From NCBI GenBank assembly GCA_041657885.1, contig JBBABB010000001.1, forward strand, positions 65,094 through 129,093: DNA of 64,000 nucleotides, written 5' to 3'. Origin of the DNA: Minisyncoccota bacterium. GTDB lineage: Bacteria > Patescibacteriota > Minisyncoccia > Phycocordibacterales > UBA9973. The notes beneath the pieces are model-generated. The model was not told where the DNA came from and made no database searches. It was given only the letters and a program-made list of their open reading frames with translations. The translations under genes were made by a program, and so were the position numbers. This document shows positions 1 through 58,265 of this stretch, piece by piece; position 1 is the stretch's first letter, and each line of letters opens with the position of its first letter.

Positions 1-5
1 AGGCG

Positions 6-659
6 ATGAATTATTTATATACAGAAAATATTGAAAAACTCGGTGTTGATTTAATGTCTTTCAATAGTTCAAAAATCTATGGTCCAAAAGGAATTGGTGT
101 TTTATATAAAAAGCGGGGAGTAAAGCTTTCCCCGCTTTATGCTGGCGGTGGACAAGAATTTGGTTTACATTCAGGGACAGAAAGTGTGTCATTGATTGCT
201 GGTTTAGCGGAAGCATTTAGTATTACAAATAAAATAAAACAAAAAGAATCTGAACGACTTACAAAAATTCGTGATTATGGAATTAAAAAATTATTATCGC
301 TCTCAGGTGTATCAGGTTATAAAATAATTCTAAATGGTGACAAGACAAATCGTTTGCCGAACAATATTAATATTTCTGTTTTAGGAATTTCAAGTGAACT
401 TTTAGTTATTGAATTATCTGCCCGTGGAATTTTTGTTTCAGAAAAAAGCGCTTGCAAAAGCGATGACCACAATAAATCATACGTAATTGATGCAATAAGA
501 AAAATTTGCCTGAAAGATGGAAGTGAGGTTGGGGGGTCTCTTCGTATTTCTCTTGGAAGGGCGAATAAAATGAGTGATATGGACATATTATATAGAGGAC
601 TAAAAAATATTTTAAAGAAATATAAACAGTGGACCCCGTTAGAGGTAGACCGCCCCTAG
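6..659 (+). CDS. Cysteine desulfurase (class V aminotransferase, IscS/NifS family), C-terminal fragment; the 5' end lies outside the window
   Basis: Translation shows a PLP-dependent class V C-terminal domain (GVDLMSF..KIYGPKGIGVLY..GGGQE..HSGTE). The frame is open from the window edge. Confidence 0.7.
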   Translation: MNYLYTENIEKLGVDLMSFNSSKIYGPKGIGVLYKKRGVKLSPLYAGGGQEFGLHSGTESVSLIAGLAEAFSITNKIKQKESERLTKIRDYGIKKLLSLSGVSGYKIILNGDKTNRLPNNINISVLGISSELLVIELSARGIFVSEKSACKSDDHNKSYVIDAIRKICLKDGSEVGGSLRISLGRANKMSDMDILYRGLKNILKKYKQWTPLEVDRP

Positions 660-7102: not shown

Positions 7103-9406
7103 TTATTTCTTTAATTTTATATTATCACCATGCTTGTGCGGATTGTGATTCTTACACATCTTGTTGCTACAACGTTCTGGAATTGTCTTAGTTCCTTCCA
7201 TCATAAGAAAACCACACATGTCACAAATATTTCCAGTTGGTTTTGCCTTAATAGCGTTTTTACAATCAGGATAATCACTGCATGAATAGAATATTCCAAA
7301 TCGTCCTCGACGTTCCATCATTTTCCCTTTATGGCACATTGGGCAAGTAATATCGGTCATTTTCTTTTTTATTTCTTCCTCATCTTGTTTTATAAATTTA
7401 CATTTTGGGTAACGAGAACAAGAAATAAAAGTTCCAAAGCGTCCTTCTCGAATGACTAATTTTCCGCCACCATTTTTACCTCCGCCTTGCATCGAGGCAG
7501 GTTTTTTATCCCCACAAAGAGGACACATTTCTCCAGTTTCTTTTGGACCTTCTAATATGTTACCCTCCATTGTACGAGCTCCATCACAATCTGGGTAGTT
7601 ACTGCAAGAATAGAATTTACCATTACGTGAAAGTTTTACAATCATACTTTTGCCACATTTTGGGCACATGATATCGAGAGGAGCCTCTCCCATATTTGTC
7701 GCTTTGGCCAACTTATCTTTTTCTTTTATTTCTTTTTGGAATGGTGTATAGAAATCACTCAATGTTTTTACATAATCTCTTGTGCCATTGGATATATCAT
7801 CGAGCTCATCTTCCATCTCGGCGGTGAAAGTATCACTAATATAATTTGCAAAATTATTCTCTAGAAAACTAGAAACAACATCTCCAGTATCAGTAGGGAA
7901 AAGTGTTCGCCCCTCTTTTCGGACATAACCTCTGTCCTCAATTGTTTTCATAATTGAAGCATAAGTAGAAGGTCGGCCAATATCTCGGGCTTCAAGCTCC
8001 TTGATGAGCCCTGCTTCAGTATAACGATTTGGTGGTTCTGTAAATTTTTCTGTACTTGTGAGGTCTATCAGTTTTAATTCTTCACCAGTCTCAACTTTTG
8101 GTAATTCAACATCTTCTCCACGAGCTCCAATATCACACATGAGCCAGCCGAGGAATAATACTTGCGAACCATTGGCAACAAAATCAGGGATAGACCCCTC
8201 CTCAGTCCTCCCCTTAGCAGGGGAGGAGGAAGAAATATTTGCAGTTATCTTTGTTTTTAATAATTTTGCATCAGACATTTGAGAAGAGACAGTTCTTTCC
8301 CAGATGAGATTGTAAAGTTTTTTCTGGTCTTCAGTTGCTCCAGCGTGTTCCTCTTCTATGTGTGTAGGGCGAATAGCTTCGTGGGCTTCTTGGGCATTTT
8401 TAGATTTAGTTTTATAAATGTGTAATTCAGCATATTCCTTGCCGTATTTTTTCTCAACAAGTTTGAGTATTTGATTCTGAGCTTGCACAGACAAATTTGT
8501 GCTATCAGTACGCATGTACGTGATGAACCCTGCCTCATAAAGTTTCTGAGCAGTTTGCATTGTTCTTGATGGTGAAAATCCAAAACGAGTGCTTGCTGTT
8601 TGTTGAAGGGTTGAAGTGGTGAAAGGTGCACGAGGGGAACGTTTTTGCTCGCTTGTTTTAACATCTGTGACAAACCACTTTTCTTGTTTGCCAAGTTCTA
8701 ATATTTTTTCTACCAGTTTCTCGTCGCGAGGTTCTTCTACACATGACAGACGCAAAACCTCTCCCCCCGCCCTCTCCTTATCAGGCGAGGGAGCTTTCGG
8801 TGAGGTTTTAAAAGTTCCTTCTATTGTCCAATATTGCTCTGGAATAAATGCGCGAATTTCACGTTCGCGTTCCATGATTATACGTAGTGCAGGGGATTGA
8901 ACTCGCCCAGCGGAAAGTCCATAACGCACTTTTTTCCAGATTATTCCAGATAAATCATATCCTACGAGACGGTCAAGAACTCTTCGTGCTTCTTGGGCTT
9001 TAACCAAATTTTGGTCAATATCACGAGGATTTTGAAGTGCTTCCTCTACTGCTTCTTTGGTAATCTCGTGAAAAGTTACTCTTTTAATCGGTGCTTTGAT
9101 TTTCTTATCAGCATCGAGGAGTTCTTTTAGATGCCAAGATATTGCTTCTCCTTCACGGTCCGGGTCAGTCGCAAGCATTATCTCCTCTGCTTTTTCTGAA
9201 AGAGATTTTAATTCGCTGACAACTTTTTCTTTCCCTTTTGATATTTCATAACGAGGCACAAATCCGGCAGGAATATCTATCGCATCTTTGTTTGATTTTG
9301 GTAAGTCCCTGATATGCCCAACAGACGCACGCACTGTGTATGCGCCCGCTAAATATTTCTCAATAGTTTTTGCTTTCGATGGTGATTCAACAATTAAAAG
9401 TTTCAT
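7103..9406 (-). CDS. topA: DNA topoisomerase I with three C-terminal C4 zinc ribbons
   Basis: TOPRIM N-terminus (MKLLIVESPSKAKTIEKYL) and three Zn-ribbon repeats (CPKCG, CPLCG, CPMC). The start was moved to the MKLL methionine. Confidence 0.95.
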   Translation of the reverse strand: MKLLIVESPSKAKTIEKYLAGAYTVRASVGHIRDLPKSNKDAIDIPAGFVPRYEISKGKEKVVSELKSLSEKAEEIMLATDPDREGEAISWHLKELLDADKKIKAPIKRVTFHEITKEAVEEALQNPRDIDQNLVKAQEARRVLDRLVGYDLSGIIWKKVRYGLSAGRVQSPALRIIMEREREIRAFIPEQYWTIEGTFKTSPKAPSPDKERAGGEVLRLSCVEEPRDEKLVEKILELGKQEKWFVTDVKTSEQKRSPRAPFTTSTLQQTASTRFGFSPSRTMQTAQKLYEAGFITYMRTDSTNLSVQAQNQILKLVEKKYGKEYAELHIYKTKSKNAQEAHEAIRPTHIEEEHAGATEDQKKLYNLIWERTVSSQMSDAKLLKTKITANISSSSPAKGRTEEGSIPDFVANGSQVLFLGWLMCDIGARGEDVELPKVETGEELKLIDLTSTEKFTEPPNRYTEAGLIKELEARDIGRPSTYASIMKTIEDRGYVRKEGRTLFPTDTGDVVSSFLENNFANYISDTFTAEMEDELDDISNGTRDYVKTLSDFYTPFQKEIKEKDKLAKATNMGEAPLDIMCPKCGKSMIVKLSRNGKFYSCSNYPDCDGARTMEGNILEGPKETGEMCPLCGDKKPASMQGGGKNGGGKLVIREGRFGTFISCSRYPKCKFIKQDEEEIKKKMTDITCPMCHKGKMMERRGRFGIFYSCSDYPDCKNAIKAKPTGNICDMCGFLMMEGTKTIPERCSNKMCKNHNPHKHGDNIKLKK

Positions 9407-10317: not shown

Positions 10318-10328
10318 ATTAATTTTTT

Positions 10329-10422
10329 ATAAGCAAGATTGCATAATTCAATTTTTATTCGCGCTTTACCCTAAAGGGCTCCGACGCGGCTCATAAAATT
10401 TGAATTATGCAACCTTGCTTAT
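10329..10422. repeat. Copy A of the conserved-core-in-hairpin element: 23-bp inverted-repeat arms (one mismatch) enclosing the core gcgctttaccctaaagggctccgacgcg (10,361-10,388)
   Basis: The core is identical to copy B (20,893-20,920) and near-identical to copy C (36,080-36,102). The arms ataagcaagattgcataattcaa / ttgaattatgcaaccttgcttat are specific to this copy. Confidence 0.6.
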
Positions 10423-10464
10423 TAATTTGTGTATTATATCATTTTTTTATATAATATATTTATT

Positions 10465-11779: not shown

Positions 11780-12646
11780 ATGAAAGACATACCTACATCT
11801 CCGCGTATTATACAAATTAGGCGTAATCGTCGAGCGCGACGATTACGCCTGCTTATTCTTTTTTTTATACTTTTTGTTTCTATAACATGGGCTCTTGCTT
11901 TTTTTTCAGAAGATAGACACGTAATAATAGATAAAGTTGTAATAACGGGGACTCATATTATAGACCAAGACGAAGTAGAGAAAGAAGTTCGCGCAGATAT
12001 TTCTGGTAAATATGTTTATCTTTTTTCTAGGGCGAATAGTTTTATATACCCACGCAAACAAATTTATAATAATTTAATTTTAAATTTTCCAAGGATAGAG
12101 TCGCTTTCAGTTTCGCGTGAGGGATTAAAAACTTTGAAAATAAATATAAAGGAAAGAGTAGGCTCATTTTTGTATTGTGGAGTGATAATACCAGAAAATA
12201 AAGATGATGTTGGAGAAAATTGTTACTTCATAAATAATGATGGTTTTATTTTTGATAAAGCGCCATATTTCTCTGGAAATGTTTATTTTAAATATTATAT
12301 GGACCTTTCTGGTGGTGGCGAAAATCCATTGGGAAAGCAGATGACTAATGTTGAACGTTTCCACGCACTTGAAAGATTTATTGATGGGGTTACATCTTTA
12401 GGCTTTAAACCGATTTACCTAACTGTAGATCCAGATGGTACACATTCTTTGTATTTGAATCATGGGATAAATAATACTATACCTAAAATTATTTTTAAAA
12501 GTGATAATGATTTAGAGGTTATATTAGATAACCTAACTCTTTCTATGAGAAAAAAAGAATTTGCCGGTGAGATAAATTCAAAGTATAATACACTCCTATA
12601 TATAGACCTACGATTTAGTAACAAGGTCTTGTATAAGTTTCAGTAA
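11780..12646 (+). CDS. Cell division protein FtsQ/DivIB-like (single TM helix followed by a POTRA domain)
   Basis: Basic cytoplasmic N-terminus, one TM helix, then a POTRA-like segment (VIIDKVVITGTHIIDQDEVEKEV...). Confidence 0.55.
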   Translation: MKDIPTSPRIIQIRRNRRARRLRLLILFFILFVSITWALAFFSEDRHVIIDKVVITGTHIIDQDEVEKEVRADISGKYVYLFSRANSFIYPRKQIYNNLILNFPRIESLSVSREGLKTLKINIKERVGSFLYCGVIIPENKDDVGENCYFINNDGFIFDKAPYFSGNVYFKYYMDLSGGGENPLGKQMTNVERFHALERFIDGVTSLGFKPIYLTVDPDGTHSLYLNHGINNTIPKIIFKSDNDLEVILDNLTLSMRKKEFAGEINSKYNTLLYIDLRFSNKVLYKFQ

Positions 12647-12788
12647 AAGGAATCTTTTAAAAATCATAAAATAGCTCTTCTCGAAATGCACGGATATTTT
12701 TCTGCTGAAAAATTCCTCGTGCTCGCGCCGTCGCGCTCCCAAGTCATTTCTCAAAGACTATTTTATTAATTTTAAAAGATTAGATATT

Positions 12789-13751
12789 ATGAAAAATTTC
12801 TGGGAAAAGTTACCGAAACCGTTTTTTTGTTTAGCGCCGATGGCCGATGTCACCGATGCGGCTTTTCGTAGTATTATTTGTAAATATGGAAAACCTGATG
12901 TTTTGTGGACAGAATTCATTTCTGCCGATGGGCTTATAAGTGCTGGTAGAGAAATTCTAAAAAATAATTTAATTTATTCAAAAAAAGAAAAGCCAATTGT
13001 CGCTCAACTTTTTTCTTCTAATCCAGTGAAGATGCGTCAAGCTGTAAAGTATGTCGCCTCACTTGGTTTTGATGGTATTGATATCAATATGGGATGCCCA
13101 GATAAATCTATTGAGAGACAAGGTGCAGGAGCGGCGATGATGAAAGATATGAAAAAAGCAAGAGAAATAATTCAGGCAGTCAAAGATGGAATAAAGGACT
13201 CTAAAAAGAATGTTTCAATATCAGTTAAAACTCGTGTCGGTTACAACAAAAGCCAGCTGGAAGAATGGATTCCTTTTTTGTTGTCACAGAATATTGATGC
13301 TCTCACTATTCATGCTCGTACCAGAAAGGAAATGTCAAAAGCTCCTGCAAACTGGGATTATGTAAAAAGGGTAGTGGAGATTAGAAATCAAATGATGGTC
13401 AAAACTAAAATAATTGGTAATGGTGATGTGAGAGATATAAAAGATGGTATAAAAAAAGCAAAAGAAACAGGTTGTGATGGTATTATGCTCGGCCGAGCAA
13501 TTTTTGGGAATCCATGGCTATTCTCTGGAAAAATTCCAACGACCAAAGAAAAATTAAAAGTTATGGTTGAACACACAAAACTATTTGAGAAAATTCTCGG
13601 CAAACATAAGAATTTTGCTGTGATGAAAAAACATTTCAAGGCATATGTAAATGGTTTTGACGGAGCTAAAGAATTACGAGTAGAATTGATGGAAACAAAA
13701 ACCACCAAAGAGGTAGAAAATGTAGTTAATGATTTTATCAAAAATCATTAA
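12789..13751 (+). CDS. tRNA-dihydrouridine synthase (Dus family)
   Basis: Dus signature (FCLAPMADVTDAAFR) with the FMN-binding TIM-barrel pattern and a catalytic Cys (INMGCP). Confidence 0.85.
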   Translation: MKNFWEKLPKPFFCLAPMADVTDAAFRSIICKYGKPDVLWTEFISADGLISAGREILKNNLIYSKKEKPIVAQLFSSNPVKMRQAVKYVASLGFDGIDINMGCPDKSIERQGAGAAMMKDMKKAREIIQAVKDGIKDSKKNVSISVKTRVGYNKSQLEEWIPFLLSQNIDALTIHARTRKEMSKAPANWDYVKRVVEIRNQMMVKTKIIGNGDVRDIKDGIKKAKETGCDGIMLGRAIFGNPWLFSGKIPTTKEKLKVMVEHTKLFEKILGKHKNFAVMKKHFKAYVNGFDGAKELRVELMETKTTKEVENVVNDFIKNH

Positions 13752-20853: not shown

Positions 20854-20869
20854 GTTGGAGTATAGCTTC

Positions 20870-20946
20870 GCACAAAATAATTTAATTTTCTTGCGCTTTA
20901 CCCTAAAGGGCTCCGACGCGACAGCGAAAATCAATTTATTTTGTGC
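20870..20946. repeat. Copy B of the conserved-core-in-hairpin element: core 20,893-20,920 flanked by 13-14 bp inverted arms (gcacaaaataattt / aatttattttgtgc). The right arm overlaps the obg start region
   Basis: The core is a 28/28 match to copy A. The arms are unrelated to those of copies A and C. Confidence 0.6.
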
Positions 20947-20960
20947 TCGCTAGAATACAT

Positions 20961-23122: not shown

Positions 23123-23195
23123 GCCCTGTTAGCTCAGCTGGTAGAGCAGCTCCCTCTTAAGGAGATGGTCGGGGGTTCGATTCCCTCACGGGGCA
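23123..23195 (+). tRNA. tRNA-Lys (anticodon CTT)
   Basis: Hand-folded cloverleaf. D-arm TAGCTCAGCTGGTAGAGC, anticodon loop CTCTTAA, T-loop TTCGATT, discriminator A. Confidence 0.9.
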
Positions 23196-23197
23196 CA

Positions 23198-23529
23198 ATA
23201 ATAAAAACCGTTGTAAAATGGTTTTTATTATTGTGCCCCGTAGCGAGACAACTGCTTGTCTCGCGTGAGGGAATCGAAAGACTTTTCCATACGAGCGAAG
23301 CGAGACGGAAAAGTACCTGCCTATGTAATAGGCGAAAGCGTACCCGCGTTTCCCTCACGGGGCACAAATTTTTGCGAAGCACAAAATTTGTGATTCTTAA
23401 ACATATCTAAATATATGTTTAAGAAAATCGAAAGACGAAGGCTGACGAGCCGAGTCGGGGTCGCGAGATTTTTCAGTAGAAAAATACTTGTGACCGAAAA
23501 CGTAATCGCGATTCCCTCACGGGGCACAA
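23198..23529. repeat. Array of tRNA-Lys 3'-end copies. Direct 18-mers ttccctcacggggcacaa at 23,350-23,367 and 23,512-23,529 match tRNA residues 23,181-23,197. A split inverted copy lies at 23,232-23,273 with a 23-nt palindromic insert. Intervening segments are rich in GNRA-type loops (gcgaaagc, tcgaaaga, gcgaagc)
   Basis: Exact string matches read on both strands. A terminator-like hairpin (aataaaaacc..ggtttttatt) follows the tRNA at 23,198-23,230. A perfect 11-bp hairpin lies at 23,390-23,417. Confidence 0.5.
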
Positions 23530-23578
23530 AAATTTGTAAATGTATTTGATTTTTTATTTTTAGGAGTATAATTAGAAT

Positions 23579-25830: not shown

Positions 25831-26133
25831 TTTGAAACCGTTGTGCTTTGCACATGAACTCGACACAAATTACGAATGGTTACGAATGTACGAATTAAAT
25901 TCGTGTCATTCGCATAAATTCGTGTATTAGTATCGTGTTAGCGAAGCGTAACTTATTGAGTCGATATTATGTGCCTCAATTGAGCACATAATGGACATTG
26001 ATTTTAAGTCCTAAAAGAAATCTGACAACAAGGGAAAGACCTGATAGGACGGAACAATAGAAAAAATATTTTTCTTGATTGATTTGATTATGAAAAAATA
26101 CCTCATTAAAGTTTAAATAAAATTAAACAAAAA

Positions 26134-26162
26134 ATCTTCCGATTAATCGGAAGATTTTTTGT
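26134..26162. terminator. Rho-independent terminator downstream of 16S (atcttccgat taa tcggaagat + T6)
   Basis: Perfect 9-10 bp stem plus T-run. A second similar hairpin lies near 26,280-26,315. Confidence 0.6.
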
Positions 26163-26430
26163 TATGTGCTTGAGCCAGCGGGCGCAAAACTCCAACACAA
26201 TTGCATATGTGAGTGCAGCCGCTGGCTAAAACACACAACGGCTACCGCATAAAGTATATAATATTTTTTATATAATACAAAATCCCTCCGATTGCTCGAA
26301 GGGGTTTTGCTATGCAATTGTTTCAATAAAATAATTCTCTATTAATTGTTGGAATTATTTACTCACTAAGTAAAGTATATCAAAATGAAACGATATTGTC
26401 AAGTTTGTGTGTTCTTGCTATAATCCTTAT

Positions 26431-26820: not shown

Positions 26821-26914
26821 TTCCTCCCCTCCTTACCAAGGAGGGGAATGAGGGGAGGTTCTTAATTAATTAGGAACCTCTCCCCAGCCCTCCCCTTGGT
26901 AAGGGGAGGGGGAA
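26821..26914. repeat. Compound GC-rich palindrome: two hairpins (cccctcctt-acc-aaggagggg; ccctcccctt-ggt-aaggggaggg) mirrored around the AT palindrome ggttcttaattaattaggaacc
   Basis: Read directly. The CCTCCCC/GGGGAGG motif class also occurs inside topA at 8,206-8,227 and 8,759-8,798. Confidence 0.5.
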
Positions 26915-29778: not shown

Positions 29779-29905
29779 CAAATATACTTATAAAATAAGG
29801 ACATCTATAGGACAAAAGGGGATTATTGTCAAAAGTAGCCGGATGCCCTTGTTTTTAGGGCTTATTTTGACACAGTAATCATATGACTGTCAAGGGATAA
29901 AACAT

Positions 29906-29934
29906 AAAAAATCCTTATTATATAAGGATTTTTT
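29906..29934. terminator. Terminator hairpin after secA (aaaaaatcctta..taaggatttttt)
   Basis: Inverted repeat plus T-run. Confidence 0.5.
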
Positions 29935-30129
29935 ATGTTTGACGAGAGCAAGAACTATGTTATAACTATTGACTTTTAGGAGCCGTTGTGCTACTATATA
30001 AGAAGTTCCAAGTATATCGTTACAGTGATGGTATATAAGGAATTTTTTCGTTTAATCTATTTATTTGATTATTCAATAAATGTTTAGACGATCCTTGGCA
30101 CGGCGTTTGGTGAAGCGTAATCACCACCT

Positions 30130-30732: not shown

Positions 30733-30779
30733 TATAATATAAAAATGCCCCGCCGACTTTGTCGGCGGGGCATTTTGCT

Positions 30780-34015: not shown

Positions 34016-35737
34016 ATGGACAAAACTCCAAAGTTTACTGCGAGGATAAATGAAATATTAAAGAATTTGGTTCCTCATAGGGTCAATTGTTTGCAGTGCA
34101 AATCAGATTTTGAAATATTAGAAAATGATATTGAGTTTTTTAAGAAATTTCAAGTTCCTCCACCCAAAATGTGTCCAGATTGTCGCAGGCAAAGACGATA
34201 TGCTTTTGCAAATTACACAACTCTTTTTAAGAGAGACTGTAATGTCTCTAATCATAATGAAAAGATGATTTCTTCAATACCAGAAGGAACAGAATTTCCA
34301 GTTTATGATTTTGATTATTATTGGCATGGCGATAGGGATTTGTATATAAATGGTAGAGATTTTGATTTTAATAAAAATTTTATAGAACAATTTAAAAAAT
34401 TATTTTTAGTTTCTCCACAACCAGCCCTTACTCGTGACCCTACTAGTGTTAACAGTGATTATACAAATTATGGGATACAACTAAAGAATTGCTATTATAC
34501 TTTTGGTGGAATAAACTCAGAAGAAATTATGTTTAGTGTGTGGCCTTTATGGGCTAAAAATTCTCTAGATATGCTCATTTCTCAAAATACAGATTTATCT
34601 TATGAAGGAGTTTTTCCGAATGGGTGCTATAACTGTAATTATGTTTATTTCTCAAAAGATTGTTTAGATTGTAATTTTATATATGATTGCCGAAATTGTT
34701 CAAATTGTTTTGGTTGTGTAAACCTTAGAAATAAAAAATATTGTATTTGGAATACTCAATATAACAAAGAGGATTATCTTGAAAAAATAAAAGAGTTTAA
34801 TTTAGGGGATAAGAAAGAATTAAAAAATTATAGAGATAAATTAGAAAAAATAATACATGATTTACCCATTAGAGCTACTAGAAATGAACATTCTAAAAAT
34901 TATAGTGGTAATTATATTATTAATTCAAAAAATACTATAAATTCATTTTGGTGTTTAGATTCTGAAAATAATGATTATACAGACTTTGCAGCTCAATCAT
35001 CTGACAATTATGATTGTTCAGTGGGAAGTTGGACAAGTAATGCTTATAGCACTATTTGTGTCGGTGTTCATTCTTCGAATGTTAAATTTTCTTCCTTAGG
35101 TAGAGAATTAAGAGATTGTGAATATATTATGAATTGCAAGAATTGTCAATACTGTTTTGGTTGCATTGGCCTTTATAATGCTAAATTTTGTATTTTTAAT
35201 AAGCAATATACAGAAGAAGAGTATTGGAAATTAGTAGATGATATTAAGGTCAAGATGTTAGAAAGTGGAGAATATGGAGAATTCTTCCCGTTATCTATAA
35301 GCCCTTTTCCTTATAGTGCTTCACTTTCAAATATTATTTATAATATTTCAAAAGAAAAAGTTTTAGAACTAGGTGGGTGGTGGTATGATGAAAAGATAAA
35401 CTTACCAAAGAATATAAAATTAATAAAAGCAAATAACATAGAACCAGATATAAAAAATATTACAGATGAAATTCTAGATATTGGAATTATAAGTGAAGGG
35501 AATGGAAAACCATTTAGAATAGTTAAGGAAGAACTTGAATTTTATAGAAAGAAGAATATTGCAATTCCAAATTTGACTCCTTATGAAAGGATTATAGATC
35601 GTTTTAAATATGTGAATAATTTTAAAGTTTTTAAAGATAAATGTTTTAAGTGTGGAATAGAAATTTTGAGTAGTTATGCGACAAATAATGGATTTAAACC
35701 TTATTGTGATGAATGTTATAAACAAGAAATTTATTAA
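34016..35737 (+). CDS. Large cysteine-cluster protein (N- and C-terminal Zn ribbons plus two internal C-x2-C-rich modules). Function unknown
   Basis: Repeated CxNCxxCxxCxxC..C blocks (CYNCNYVYFSKDCLDCNFIYDCRNCSNCFGC and CEYIMNCKNCQYCFGC). Terminal CxxC pairs. Confidence 0.5.
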   Translation: MDKTPKFTARINEILKNLVPHRVNCLQCKSDFEILENDIEFFKKFQVPPPKMCPDCRRQRRYAFANYTTLFKRDCNVSNHNEKMISSIPEGTEFPVYDFDYYWHGDRDLYINGRDFDFNKNFIEQFKKLFLVSPQPALTRDPTSVNSDYTNYGIQLKNCYYTFGGINSEEIMFSVWPLWAKNSLDMLISQNTDLSYEGVFPNGCYNCNYVYFSKDCLDCNFIYDCRNCSNCFGCVNLRNKKYCIWNTQYNKEDYLEKIKEFNLGDKKELKNYRDKLEKIIHDLPIRATRNEHSKNYSGNYIINSKNTINSFWCLDSENNDYTDFAAQSSDNYDCSVGSWTSNAYSTICVGVHSSNVKFSSLGRELRDCEYIMNCKNCQYCFGCIGLYNAKFCIFNKQYTEEEYWKLVDDIKVKMLESGEYGEFFPLSISPFPYSASLSNIIYNISKEKVLELGGWWYDEKINLPKNIKLIKANNIEPDIKNITDEILDIGIISEGNGKPFRIVKEELEFYRKKNIAIPNLTPYERIIDRFKYVNNFKVFKDKCFKCGIEILSSYATNNGFKPYCDECYKQEIY

Positions 35738-36444
35738 TGAATAAAGATATTAAATATATTGTGGGAATAGATGAAGTAGGGAGAGGACCGATAGCAGGAC
35801 CGGTAGCTGTCTGCGCTTTCTTAATTAAAGATAATTCTTTTTGCATAGGTCAGACCTATGCGAAGTTGCCTAAACTTCGAGATTCCAAGAAACTTTCTAA
35901 AAAGCAGAGAGAAAAATGGTTTGAGTATTTGAAAGTCGCAAAAACCGAAGGTTTTTGCGATTACGTTGTATCTTTTGTCTCTCCAGAAAATATTGATAAA
36001 TTTGGAATTGTAAAATGTATTCAAAAAGCTTTGAATGAATCTCTTTCCAAAGTCGCTTCACAGAATCTTCCAAATTTTTCCCGCTTTACCCTAAAGGGCT
36101 CCCTGCCCGACAATGCCAGCTATAGGCAGGCGGGCGACACGGATAAAAATTTGGAAGATTCTGTTTCGCTTTCCTCACTTCACGTTTATCTGGACGGTGG
36201 ACTTCATGCACCAATTGAATACATAAATCAAGAGACAATTATAAGAGGGGATGAACTTCATCCAGTTATTTCTATGGCATCAATTATGGCAAAAGTTTCG
36301 CGAGACAGAATTATGATAAATTATGCAAAAGTTTATCCAAAATATGGTTTTGAGCGTCATGTTGGCTATGGTACAAAAGCTCATTACGACGCCATCAAAA
36401 AACACGGCCAAACGCCAATTCATCGCAAAACTTTTATTCACTAA
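35737..36444 (+). CDS. rnhB: Ribonuclease HII, carrying a 26-aa in-frame insertion derived from the core-in-hairpin repeat
   Basis: RNase HII N-terminus (VGIDEVGRGPIAGPVAVCA). The insertion encodes ..SRFTLKGSLPDNASYRQAGDTDKN... Confidence 0.85.
   Translation: MNKDIKYIVGIDEVGRGPIAGPVAVCAFLIKDNSFCIGQTYAKLPKLRDSKKLSKKQREKWFEYLKVAKTEGFCDYVVSFVSPENIDKFGIVKCIQKALNESLSKVASQNLPNFSRFTLKGSLPDNASYRQAGDTDKNLEDSVSLSSLHVYLDGGLHAPIEYINQETIIRGDELHPVISMASIMAKVSRDRIMINYAKVYPKYGFERHVGYGTKAHYDAIKKHGQTPIHRKTFIH
36067..36157. repeat. Copy C of the conserved-core-in-hairpin element inside rnhB. Perfect 13-bp arms cttccaaattttt / aaaaatttggaag enclose a 65-nt GC-rich insert that begins with the core ccgctttaccctaaagggctcc
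   Basis: Core match to copies A and B. Insert plus one arm is 78 nt (26 codons), so the rnhB frame is preserved. Confidence 0.6.
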
Positions 36445-39946: not shown

Positions 39947-40018
39947 TTTACTGTTAAGTATCTACATTTATAAAACTAAAAACCTCTCTGGCTCACGTCA
40001 GAGAGGTTTTTAGTTTTG

Positions 40019-50749: not shown

Positions 50750-52364
50750 AGACAAAAAAATTAAATACTTTTTGTATGCACGAAAATCGAGTGAGTCGGA
50801 AGAGCGCCAAGCGGCATCGATTGAAGACCAAATCAAAGAATTAACGAGAATTGCGAAAGATTTTAATTTGGAGATTATAGAAATATTTACAGAGTCGCAG
50901 TCAGCTAAAGCGCCTGGTCGCACAGTGTTCAACGAAATGATTAGACGTCTCTATGCTGGAGAAGCAAATGGCGTTTTGTGTTGGAAGCTGGATAGACTTG
51001 CTAGAAATTTTATAGATGGCGGTGCCATCATTGACCTGCTTCAAAGCGGAAAGATGCAAAGTATCCGAACCCACGAGAAATTTTATCTTCCATCAGACAA
51101 TGTGCTAATGATGGCGATGGAGTTTGGAATGGCAAATCAATTTGTTCGAGACCTTTCGGTGAATGTGAAGCGCGGTCTTAAAAACAAAGCAGAGAAGGGT
51201 TGGCTACCTGGCATTGCTCCAATTGGATATCAAAGCACTCCTGACCGAGAAAAAGGATTCAAGGAAATAGAAATTGACCCTGAGCGCTTTCCGCTTGTTC
51301 GTCGAATCTTTGATTTAATGCTCACGGGAAATTATACTGCTCCGCAGATATGGAAGATGACAAAAGAATGGAATCTAACAACCATCAAGCGAAAGAAAAT
51401 CGGCGGTCATCATCTCTCAAAGAGTGGAATCTACGCTCTTCTCGCAAATCCTTTCTATTATGGACGCTTCGAATATCCTGTCGGTAGCGGAAATTGGATA
51501 CAAGGAAAACACAAGCCGATGATTGAGGAAGAAGAATTTAATCATATTCAGAGAATGCTAGGAAAGAAAGGTAAGCCGTGTCCCAAGACTCACCTTTTCG
51601 CTTTTACAGGAATGATGCGTTGCGGTTTTTGTGGAAGTTCTATTACTGCTGAAACAAAAACGAAGAGACAGAAAAATGGAAATGTTCACGAATACATTTA
51701 TTATCATTGCACTAAAAGAAAAAATGAAGCTTGTGTAGAAAAATCTGTGGAAGTAAAAAACCTTAATGCGCAAATAGATGAACTTTTATCTCGCATCACT
51801 ATTTCCGAGGGGTTCAAGGAATGGGCAATAAAATATCTACACGAAATAAGAGAAAGCGAAGCTGAAAGCCAGGAAACAATTCTTAAAAACAAAAATAAGG
51901 AACTCGAGTCGGTAAATACCCATTTATCTAAGCTCATACTCGACTACACTTCTGCTGAAAATACTGATGGAGGTATTATGTCTGCTGACGAACTCAAAGC
52001 AGTAAAGGGAGGCTTGCAGAAGCGTAAAATTGCCCTTGAGGAAGAATTAACGAAAGTAAATATAGAAAAGGACAAGTGGTTAGAATTGAGCGAGAAAACA
52101 TTTAATTTTGCAAGATACGCTCGTAGTTGGTTTGAACAAGGCAATAACGATACCAAAAAATCTATACTAAACTGTCTTGGTTCGAACCTCATCATAAAAG
52201 ACCAAAAACTCAATGTTTTACTGCATCCTTTCTTCTTGAGTATCTTTGAAGAGAAAGATAAGGTGGAAGCAAATTTTGCTTCTGCTCGAACCTCCAAAAA
52301 CCTTTTATCTGAAAGACAAAAAGTTAATTTAGACCCAAAATACAAAACATTGCTCCGTGGGTAG
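50736..52364 (+). CDS. Large serine recombinase (resolvase-type catalytic domain, recombinase domain, zinc ribbon, C-terminal coiled coil)
   Basis: Catalytic region (YARKSSESEERQAASIEDQ), recombinase domain, and Zn ribbon (CGFCGSS..YYHCTKRK). The stop codon overlaps the 3' end of the tRNA-Asn on the opposite strand. Confidence 0.9.
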   Translation: MKKIEDKKIKYFLYARKSSESEERQAASIEDQIKELTRIAKDFNLEIIEIFTESQSAKAPGRTVFNEMIRRLYAGEANGVLCWKLDRLARNFIDGGAIIDLLQSGKMQSIRTHEKFYLPSDNVLMMAMEFGMANQFVRDLSVNVKRGLKNKAEKGWLPGIAPIGYQSTPDREKGFKEIEIDPERFPLVRRIFDLMLTGNYTAPQIWKMTKEWNLTTIKRKKIGGHHLSKSGIYALLANPFYYGRFEYPVGSGNWIQGKHKPMIEEEEFNHIQRMLGKKGKPCPKTHLFAFTGMMRCGFCGSSITAETKTKRQKNGNVHEYIYYHCTKRKNEACVEKSVEVKNLNAQIDELLSRITISEGFKEWAIKYLHEIRESEAESQETILKNKNKELESVNTHLSKLILDYTSAENTDGGIMSADELKAVKGGLQKRKIALEEELTKVNIEKDKWLELSEKTFNFARYARSWFEQGNNDTKKSILNCLGSNLIIKDQKLNVLLHPFFLSIFEEKDKVEANFASARTSKNLLSERQKVNLDPKYKTLLRG

Positions 52365-52720
52365 GGATCGAACCTACGACCAATCGCTTACACTTTATCT
52401 CCTATTACTAGAAGTGTGGACTATATCATCTCCATGTTCATAATTTTATGAATTTAGGAGCAAGGCGCTTCCCATCCGATTATTACCGGAAAGTACTCCC
52501 CGAAAGGATAGTCTCTACACCTTCCTCGATTTTGTGTCGAGGCTTGGCTCGGGATTACCCTAGGCTAAATCAATTATAAATAATTGATCGCCCGAACTTT
52601 TGTTTTCAAAAGTTTTTAGGGGCTTCCCCGAATTCACCTTGTTTTTCATCCTACTTTTCAATAGAAAGCTGCGTAAATTTTCTTTCCACAGGCGATCGCT
52701 CTACCGCTGAGCTACCACGG
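52353..52720 (-). tRNA. tRNA-Asn (anticodon GTT) interrupted in the anticodon loop by a 296-nt group I intron
   Basis: Exon 1 is 52,687-52,720 (TCCGTGGTAGCTCAGCGGTAGAGCGATCGCCTGT). Exon 2 is 52,353-52,390 (TAAGCGATTGGTCGTAGGTTCGATCCCTACCCACGGAG). The joined anticodon loop is CTGTTAA. U1-A72 and discriminator G are as in E. coli tRNA-Asn. A tRNA-Thr alternative (splice after CT) is not fully excluded. Confidence 0.75.
52391..52686 (-). ncRNA. Group I intron of the cyanobacterial tRNA-Leu intron type (about 300 nt, no ORF)
   Basis: P7 halves AGACTA and TAGTC (ggtgtagagacta ... gatatagtcc). P3/P4 block aatcccgagccaagcc. Exon CTGT pairs with internal guide GCAG with a U-G at the 5' splice site. 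The intron ends in G. Confidence 0.75.
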
Positions 52721-52928
52721 AATGTATCTACTTATAAAGTAGATGTGGTTATAATATCAAAAAAATATCCAAAAAGCAAAGTAAAATGATAATATAAATA
52801 TGGAAAGATAACCTACCCACAAAAATTGCTTTTTTTTATAAATAGTTGTATAGTTAGAACATTAACAATAAGCCTATATATTAATTATATGTTTTGTTGA
52901 TATTATTAATAATAAAAAAATAAAAAAT

Positions 52929-56113: not shown

Positions 56114-56154
56114 CGTTCCAAGTGCGGAGCCTATGGGCGAGGCAAGTTCTGAGC
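56114..56154. repeat. Degenerate hairpin-element remnant plus 24-nt companion motif (ctatgggcgaggcaagttctgagc)
   Basis: The companion motif is identical to 58,242-58,265. The leading part is a deleted variant of the hairpin element. Confidence 0.5.
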
Positions 56155-58214: not shown

Positions 58215-58265
58215 ATTTGAACATCCTCCCACGTTCGGAGCCTATGGGCGAGGCAAGTTCTGAGC
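58215..58265. repeat. Hairpin/mini-ORF element copy 4 (variant, minus orientation; reverse complement gives ..gggaggATGTTCAAATGA) fused to the companion motif ctatgggcgaggcaagttctgagc
   Basis: String matches to the 40,019 family and to 56,131-56,154. Confidence 0.55.

Follow-up and report, generated by a model that had tools for sequence, protein, structure and literature searches.

A palindromic repeat family in Parcubacteria genomes, apparently undescribed, found in short spacers and in frame within protein genes

The 64-kb stretch of DNA analyzed here (hereafter the window) raises the question of why one GC-rich core should recur at the tips of three different AT-rich hairpins, one of them inside the coding sequence of RNase HII, and of whether the core or the entire hairpin is the unit that comes and goes. 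The recurrence is genuine. In the window, which belongs to a Parcubacteria (Paceibacterota) MAG of 35% G+C, the 20-mer GCTTTACCCTAAAGGGCTCC has three exact matches on the + strand, at 10363, 20895, and 36083 (copies A, B, and C), and the chance expectation is none: 100 dinucleotide shuffles of the window gave zero matches, even with up to three mismatches allowed. As originally noted, the 28-mer gcgctttaccctaaagggctccgacgcg is identical between copies A and B, and in every case the core occupies the tip of a long AT-rich hairpin; the start of copy C, previously placed at 36080, is at 36081. The inverted repeats that had been noted around each copy are present, but their lengths had been underestimated. 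The arms of copy A span 33 nt (10326-10358 / 10393-10425; 91% complementary), those of copy B 21 nt (20870-20890 / 20926-20946; 90% complementary), and those of copy C 20 nt with perfect complementarity (36060-36079 / 36145-36164), where 13 had been given. Folding z-scores of the three copies relative to shuffled sequence range from -3.9 to -8.5, and a scan of the window with the covariance model described below matched only these three copies (Table 1).

Copy A is flanked by the genes for DprA and SerS, and its orthologue in L035 (loci outside the window carry L numbers throughout) has a compensatory change in an arm. Copy C has a composite structure. What had been taken for a 43-nt GC-rich extension of its core is a separate GC-rich hairpin of 33 nt, which lies between ...GGGCTCC and GACACGG; the core of copy C is therefore complete, and is split into a 5′ part (36081-36102) and a 3′ part (36136-36142) around the nested hairpin.

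Table 1. Positions of the repeat copies, their nested module and host gene, and a second hairpin family (window numbering unless an L number is given)
Feature	Positions	Strand	Context and remarks
Copy A, complete hairpin element	10326..10425	+	Divergent dprA-serS spacer; core 28-mer 10361-10388; covariance model 90.5 bits
Copy B, complete element (gcttcgcac to gtgctcgc)	20865..20950	+	Spacer between a MYG1-family gene and obg; core 20893-20920; covariance model 74.6 bits
Copy C, in frame in rnhB (gcttcacag to ctgtttcgc)	36055..36169	+	Covariance model 53.5 bits
Nested second GC-rich hairpin (CTGCCCGA...CAGGCGGGC) in the tip of copy C	36103..36135	+	Encodes LPDNASYRQAG; 37-nt insert relative to the covariance model
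Host gene rnhB (RNase HII, 235 aa)	35737..36444	+	Intact ORF; PF01351
Second GC-rich family, in the topA ORF	8184-8232 and 8742-8796	-	Family unseen at the obg spacer
Second GC-rich family, intergenic	26821-26914		Pair downstream of RNase P RNA
Second GC-rich family, in other Parcubacteria genomes	L054:1980-1997; L076:7031-7048 and 7930-7947		

Several other structured sequences were observed in the window. Perfect AT-rich hairpins of 19 bp that have no GC core are numerous (29900-29940, 26126-26163, 39972-40017, and 30741-30779) and are probably terminators; they score weakly with the covariance model of the element, through their stems alone. A perfect GC-rich palindrome of 14-15 bp (11818-11851) lies in the 5′ coding part of the ORF at 11780-12646, where it encodes an Arg-rich stretch, and was called on both strands by a terminator scan. 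Upstream of ATG codons, at a distance of ~30-45 nt in each case, a GC-rich motif of ~30 nt (gctcagaaCTTGCCTCGCCCATAGGCTCCG) occurs at 56125-56146 and 58236-58257 (-); it has no Rfam match and is a candidate 5′ leader or regulatory RNA. Positions 52398-52746 (-) hold a group I intron (Rfam, 63 bits) with tRNA-like GC-rich flanks (52352-52381 and 52686-52721), and the locus looks like an intron-split tRNA gene, although ARAGORN made no call there. Finally, downstream of the tRNA-Lys gene there are three repeats of its 3′ end (CCCTCACGGGGCACAA; 23176-23198, 23347-23367, and 23505-23535), the pattern left by elements integrating into a tRNA gene.

The core recurs well outside the window. A scan of representative genomes recovered the exact 20-mer in 108 stretches, all of which (108/108) belong to Patescibacteria/Parcubacteria genomes (MAGs) labeled Nomurabacteria, Nealsonbacteria, Vogelbacteria, Paceibacterota, Minisyncoccales, or 'Saccharibacteria'; viral contigs scanned for the 20-mer gave no match. 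Exact-core copies reach a maximum of about 12 per genome (12 in PMDZ01, 10 in CAZQLH01, and 8 on the 704-kb contig LBRL01000001). Nearly all copies of the 20-mer lie in the same type of hairpin, and an alignment of 111 copies is almost without gaps and reveals a single architecture. The element is ~85 nt long, or 100-115 nt when the arms are longer or a module is nested within it. Its left terminus, GC-TTC-GCAG, pairs with the right terminus, CTGC-TTC-GC, except for a 3x3 internal loop. Inward of these follows a helix of fixed length in which ~8-10 bp vary between copies yet remain complementary, and then an inner stem that is specific to subfamilies (AAATTnTTCsC ... RAATTT) and has a 4-5-nt bulge on its 3′ side. 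In the GC-rich tip, a short GC stem is followed by a 4x4 internal loop (TTTA / CTCC) and then by a CCC/GGG mini-hairpin closed by a TAAA loop.

A covariance model built from the 111-copy alignment found just three additional copies, with variant cores, over 450 kb of related loci; the exact-match search was biased in favor of perfect cores. A regex search for further families sharing the termini returned nothing new with a pattern that was too strict. Rfam yielded no match at gathering thresholds, and permissive E-values brought up only sub-threshold generic long hairpins (miRNA precursors). Copies A and B were not called in a consensus terminator scan; the stems of the element are AT-rich at the base and continue into gcttcgc rather than a T-run, and the element thus differs from an intrinsic terminator. 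With three copies in the 64 kb of the window, the element has the character of a short palindromic repeat with many copies per genome. Our search of the literature on Patescibacteria/CPR found no paper linking the phylum to palindromic elements, MITEs, or RPEs. Copies A, B, and C are members of a widespread palindromic repeat family of Parcubacteria (CPR) that is apparently undescribed.

A family with a conserved loop and covarying stems had been one of the options offered for these repeats, and the stems do covary strongly. In the alignment 88.4% of stem cells are paired, compared with 65.3% in shuffles, and the covariation score of 0.521 (0.132 when shuffled) was reached by 0/500 shuffles; controls in which the register was slid gave scores of at most 0.174. 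Double-sided changes are present in 582 stem cells. The tip hairpin covaries as well, CCC/GGG being replaced by CCCC/GGGG (CCCCAGAGGGG), by CCCAG/CTGGG (CCCAG-AGTA-CTGGG), or by CCCCC/GGGGG.

The remaining mismatches indicate which strand folds. On the + strand, A.C mismatches occupy 72 stem cells (63 sequence contexts) and G.T mismatches 24 (21 contexts), counts that should be read cautiously given that they cover related copies rather than independent events and that the pairing register near the tip is ambiguous. Because an A.C mismatch on the + strand corresponds to G.T or G.U on its complement, this excess points to the strand complementary to the given core. The excess holds for elements that are sense, antisense, or located between divergent genes, and a transcription-driven mutational bias can accordingly be ruled out as its source. 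The opposite bias would be expected if an exposed coding or leading strand were deaminated, and from this we infer that folding is required of the complementary strand. The minus-strand fold is also the more stable one in 111 of 113 copies. Intergenic copies are mostly co-directional with the flanking genes (31, vs 8 opposed), and GC skew is positive on the + strand of the element at 91/107 loci. The orientation thus mostly keeps the stronger-folding strand off the mRNA or the G-rich strand, a bias that would fit selection against very stable hairpins in mRNA or in exposed single strands.

The element is better conserved than the sites next to it. Copy B (85 nt in the window) is identical to its counterparts in L128, L136, and L153 at 83/83, 84/85, and 80/85 positions, respectively, whereas identity in the same comparisons is 73-80% over the first 450 nt of obg and 45-56% at third-codon positions. 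Likewise, copy C with the nested module removed is 95-96% identical to the elements of L041, L099, and L104, and synonymous third positions in the rnhB flanks are 53-62% identical in these comparisons. Lineages of equal host divergence carry quite different arms in rnhB. Element divergence does not track host divergence, and two explanations of the high identity are possible: exchange or re-insertion between lineages at the same sites, or strong selection at the nucleotide level.

The MYG1-obg spacer (window 20854-20960; orthologues L116-L195) is a hot spot at which at least six unrelated hairpin families are found; these have AT arms and GC centers, several occur in both orientations, and some spacers hold AT-rich direct repeats. 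At the same site upstream of obg, L062 and L087 share their outer arms but differ in that the center is inverted. In L113 the element is inverted inside rnhB, and the TAA expected from this inversion reads TTA; the antisense phase reached by flipping the element carries a TAA stop. The composite of element and nested GC hairpin seen in copy C is also present in RecJ of L067, and the nested module stands alone at L019:353-389 and L095:6396-6431. Among rnhB alleles there are also tandem extra arms, half-elements, and cases in which the same termini enclose unrelated central modules. In-place inversion, loss of an arm, tandem duplication of arms, and acceptance of other hairpins into the tip all arise because the element is palindromic. 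Other GC-centered hairpin families behave likewise, including an in-frame insertion in topA.

Two of these further families are represented in the window. A second GC-rich hairpin family, CTCCCCT-nnnn-AGGGGAG with GGGAGG flanks, is in frame in topA (topoisomerase I; Table 1). A third family (AT arms round ...atagctcttctcg...cctcgtgctcgcgccgtcgcgctccc...ctcaaagactatt) lies at 12638-12794, and fills the MYG1-obg spacer, upstream of obg, in L119, L134, and L147.

The explanation that we consider probable, if by no means secure, is that the family is a selfish, non-autonomous palindromic element of an RPE/MITE-like kind that colonizes the AT-rich, streamlined genomes of Parcubacteria (Paceibacteria). 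Mobility is suggested by the distribution of the copies rather than by a mechanism: neither a linked transposase or mobilizing gene nor a convincing target-site duplication was seen. Copies survive only where they are tolerated, namely in short spacers just after stop codons and in surface loops of housekeeping proteins. To judge from the mismatches, propagation may proceed through a folded single strand complementary to the given core, and a trans-acting protein would then recognize the conserved tip and termini. Copies may also move or swap between lineages into the same sites, and such movement would explain why the element is conserved above neighboring synonymous sites.

The main rival to this explanation is that the element is a host-beneficial structured RNA or folded ssDNA under purifying selection (an antisense small RNA, say, a signal for processing or stability, or a site recognized by a protein of replication or recombination), and that the copies in ORFs are tolerated by-products. 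We regard this as unlikely, although conservation above that of synonymous sites is also what such selection would produce. The whole element, including its AT-rich arms, is 95-100% identical where flanking synonymous sites are near saturation, the helix length is fixed and covariation strong, the wobble bias singles out one folded strand, and both the orientation bias (31 vs 8) and the GC skew (91/107 loci) are pronounced; on the folding strand, moreover, the 4x4 loop would read GGAG/UAAA and may resemble a UAA/GAN internal loop. A host function is harder to reconcile with the obg site, which is empty in about half of the relatives and filled with unrelated hairpin families in others, with in-frame copies at no fewer than 14 different ORF sites, with the in-place inversion of copies, and with the decay of rnhB cores through point mutation. 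In addition, no promoter or terminator signal stands out, no Rfam family matches, and the favored folding strand is antisense to host genes. The more specific proposal of a pure RNA motif survives only in part: the covariation fits it, but in-frame occupancy of at least 14 ORF sites, in-place inversion, and wobbles that favor the antisense strand do not.

One may postulate, tentatively and with low confidence, a further scenario in which the element is a recognition module read as a folded single strand, a 'molecular ruler' composed of 9-bp termini, a fixed-length helix of free sequence, and a GC tip, that homes between lineages, or else a domesticated hairpin with a host function. Under the homing version, the element would be the substrate of a parcubacterial enzyme, be it an HUH/Y1-type nuclease, a recombinase, or a reverse transcriptase, and would enter the same few permissive sites, possibly aided by natural competence. 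Either a homing module or a domesticated hairpin would explain both the high conservation of the element and the alternation of at least six families at a single spacer. A DNA uptake sequence was considered separately and is unlikely, as copies arise as ~85-nt indels and their number is low.

A different mechanism had been favored at first, in which mobility is confined to the GC core, alone or together with the inner stem, and the outer arms derive either from inverted duplication of the flank (fold-back synthesis) or from a pre-existing hairpin such as a terminator. This now appears improbable. It would account for paralogues within one genome whose inner stem and core are the same but whose outer arms are unrelated (L087:5995 vs L087:2227; aaaaattcgcc subfamily), it could draw on the generic coreless AT-rich hairpins that are common in the window, and it would find apparent targets in two short rnhB alleles that retain the left arm only (gct tca cag aat ctt | tct tca ...). 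The left arm of these alleles fits the family consensus GCTTCRCAG, however, and so comes from the element rather than the host; for this reason we read the alleles as deletion remnants and not as pristine targets. A truly element-free rnhB allele differs from them, and the gene is thus found with the element, without it, and with remnants of it.

The wider distribution of the arms also speaks against a mobile core. The arms had been described as unique to each copy, which holds within the window, but across genomes they form subfamilies that are common to many loci. The variant ...tattctaaaatttcttcgc / tctcagaaatttcagaata... is present in at least five MAGs at non-orthologous loci, and the variant cgcaRgattattaaaatt... 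recurs at many non-orthologous loci in Nomurabacteria; arms, termini, and inner stems are all common to unrelated loci in different genomes. One clean filled/empty intergenic pair is available, in which L087 is filled and the window empty: the two differ by a single 88-nt indel that coincides exactly with the hairpin, and the empty site contains neither of the arms. The site of copy B gives a similar picture. In the closest relative, L116, whose Obg is 98% identical, the spacer is 9 nt and contains no palindrome. Of 80 obg loci retrieved from metagenomes, 77 could be read far enough upstream, and about half of these 77 relatives have a spacer of 9-17 nt, many of them without a palindrome. Given that the arms are shared by unrelated loci and that the 88-nt indel comprises the whole hairpin, inverted duplication of the flanking target is unsupported; insertion into the loops of existing hairpins is equally unsupported, since the empty sites have no pre-existing hairpin. 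The original prediction had named palindromes standing without the core, or a core confined to the window, as evidence that would tell against it; the core recurs elsewhere and the empty sites lack the palindrome. The whole hairpin, including its arms, is the unit that is gained or lost.

These comparisons have some limits. The filled and empty cases are equally compatible with precise deletion of the hairpin, and the 88-nt indel is bounded by A/T runs that allow a duplication of at most TA. The direct repeat GCTTCGC that flanks copies was considered as a target-site duplication and rejected: it is the 3x3 internal loop of the stem, and some copies are fully paired there (GCGAAGCAG). In several sets of near-identical copies at different loci (L017/L024/L057, L048/L070, and L043/L055), the similarity extends 13-35 nt into the flank, and these copies may be part of larger duplications.

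Copies inside protein genes are frequent. Long ORFs contain 42/117 copies (36%), at 14 or more distinct sites, and 75/117 are non-coding. All 42 are in the sense orientation, free of stops, and read in one shared frame that gives ...SRFTLKGSD...; splicing or bypass of the insert can be rejected, because the frame is kept and the copies are stop-free in 42/42 cases. According to Pfam, the host proteins are RNase HII, UvrA (three sites), UvrC (two sites), TGT, an RluA-type pseudouridine synthase, LeuRS, IleRS, DprA, RecJ, TsaD, and a WecG/TagA glycosyltransferase. One sense phase and all but one of the three antisense phases contain a stop codon within the core, and the second sense phase is closed in many core variants, such that the frame bias of the ORF copies is largely a consequence of stops in the other frames. 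The 42 copies bear out, as far as their reading frames allow it to be judged, the suggestion that this would be an RPE-like structured element tolerated in frame inside proteins. Two of the synthetase genes have further inserts besides the hairpin element: the LeuRS of L018:4637-7651 contains an inserted NUDIX domain, and the IleRS of L040:3959-7477 an inserted histidine-phosphatase domain.

Copy C illustrates this class of insertion. It lies, as noted at first, in frame inside an intact RNase HII ORF of 235 aa. An alignment of rnhB orthologues includes element-free sequences of 201 aa, and relative to these (235 vs 201 aa, P0088) the insertion amounts to 34 codons, not the 26 proposed initially. 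The insert falls in a loop between a helix and the strand that bears LDGG, and alignments to solved RNase HII chains break exactly at query residues 109-142; this placement was made by alignment to the solved chains, the AlphaFold model (mean pLDDT 50.4) being unusable. The FTLKGS peptide is kept in just 31/120 rnhB orthologues, many of which have point variants. It is very improbable that the peptide ...SRFTLKGSD... is itself the selected module and the DNA palindrome incidental. All 42 ORF copies do share frame and peptide, but 75/117 copies are non-coding, synonymous positions of the core are invariant among the copies (an invariance forced by the exact 20-mer matching), the frame bias follows from stops in other frames (TAA in the flipped phase), the insert falls in a loop left unaligned against solved structures, and its arms encode freely varying peptide sequence.

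The reading of the family as a selfish palindromic element invites comparison with known systems. Rickettsia palindromic elements (RPE), reportedly described by Ogata et al. in 2000, are similar in kind: both are short palindromic repeats of a reduced, AT-rich genome, situated between genes and in frame in housekeeping ORFs, where they would be read in one frame as an extra surface peptide, and both lack coding capacity and a known transposase. All copies reported here have Patescibacteria as hosts, as opposed to Rickettsiales, and RPE-like therefore denotes a kind of element and not membership of Rickettsia RPE-1..10. The two also differ in that the termini and GC-rich tip are conserved here in sequence, whereas the middle of the stem is conserved as pairing only, and in-place inversion, nesting, and competition of several families for sites are documented in the Parcubacteria element.

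With MITEs such as Correia/CREE of Neisseria or Nezha, the family shares small size, lack of coding capacity, multiple copies, terminal inverted repeats, the capacity to form hairpins, and presence/absence polymorphism; its length of 85-115 nt and its terminal inverted repeats (GC-NNN-GCAG / CTGC-NNN-GC) are those of a small non-coding element of this type. In contrast to MITEs, no clear target-site duplication was found, and the 8-kb loci revealed no parent IS whose ends match; the family is also most conserved at its center and not just at its ends, and a rough extrapolation gives a low copy number of about 10-40 per genome. The mobile GC clusters of yeast mitochondria and the double-hairpin elements of fungal mitochondria are organellar, shorter, and have no long AT-rich arms. 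They resemble the Parcubacteria family as GC-rich palindromes of very AT-rich genomes that occupy spacers and occasionally coding sequence in frame and that fall into several families, a likeness that implies no homology.

Integron attC sites and ends of the IS200/IS605 type offer a functional analogy only, in that structure and length are conserved, the sequence of the stem is free, and one strand folds better than the other. An attC site has no conserved loop, however, and its R''/R' motifs are absent from the Parcubacteria element; with no integrase or Y1 transposase linked to the copies, the comparison is a lead rather than a classification. REP/BIME sequences (RAYT) are likewise repeated palindromes that often lie just after genes, but they are extragenic, 20-40 nt long, and present in hundreds of copies, with a GTAG or CGTC tag at the base of their stem. 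The Parcubacteria element, at 85-115 nt, with 36% of its copies intragenic, termini of GCTTCGCAG, and no GTAG/CGTC tag, does not belong to the REP/RAYT class.

CPR bacteria have among the smallest and most compact genomes and are usually described as repeat-poor. Parcubacteria carry several families of GC-centered hairpins, repeatedly in the same tiny spacers, and judging from the ORFs that contain them these elements would add 20-35 residues to essential enzymes, including RNase HII, UvrA, UvrC, TGT, and aminoacyl-tRNA synthetases. For annotation, this means that hairpin elements may account for unexplained inserts in CPR proteins and for intergenic "motifs". For genome evolution, the elements are a cause of nested insertions as well as of inversions and deletions, and some observations hint at horizontal spread. 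The family also provides a clean natural data set for compensatory evolution in a DNA or RNA helix. With regard to mobile-element biology, it may point to a mobilization system that recognizes a folded strand, and if it is a homing module it would represent a new class of site-recurrent hairpin mobile element.
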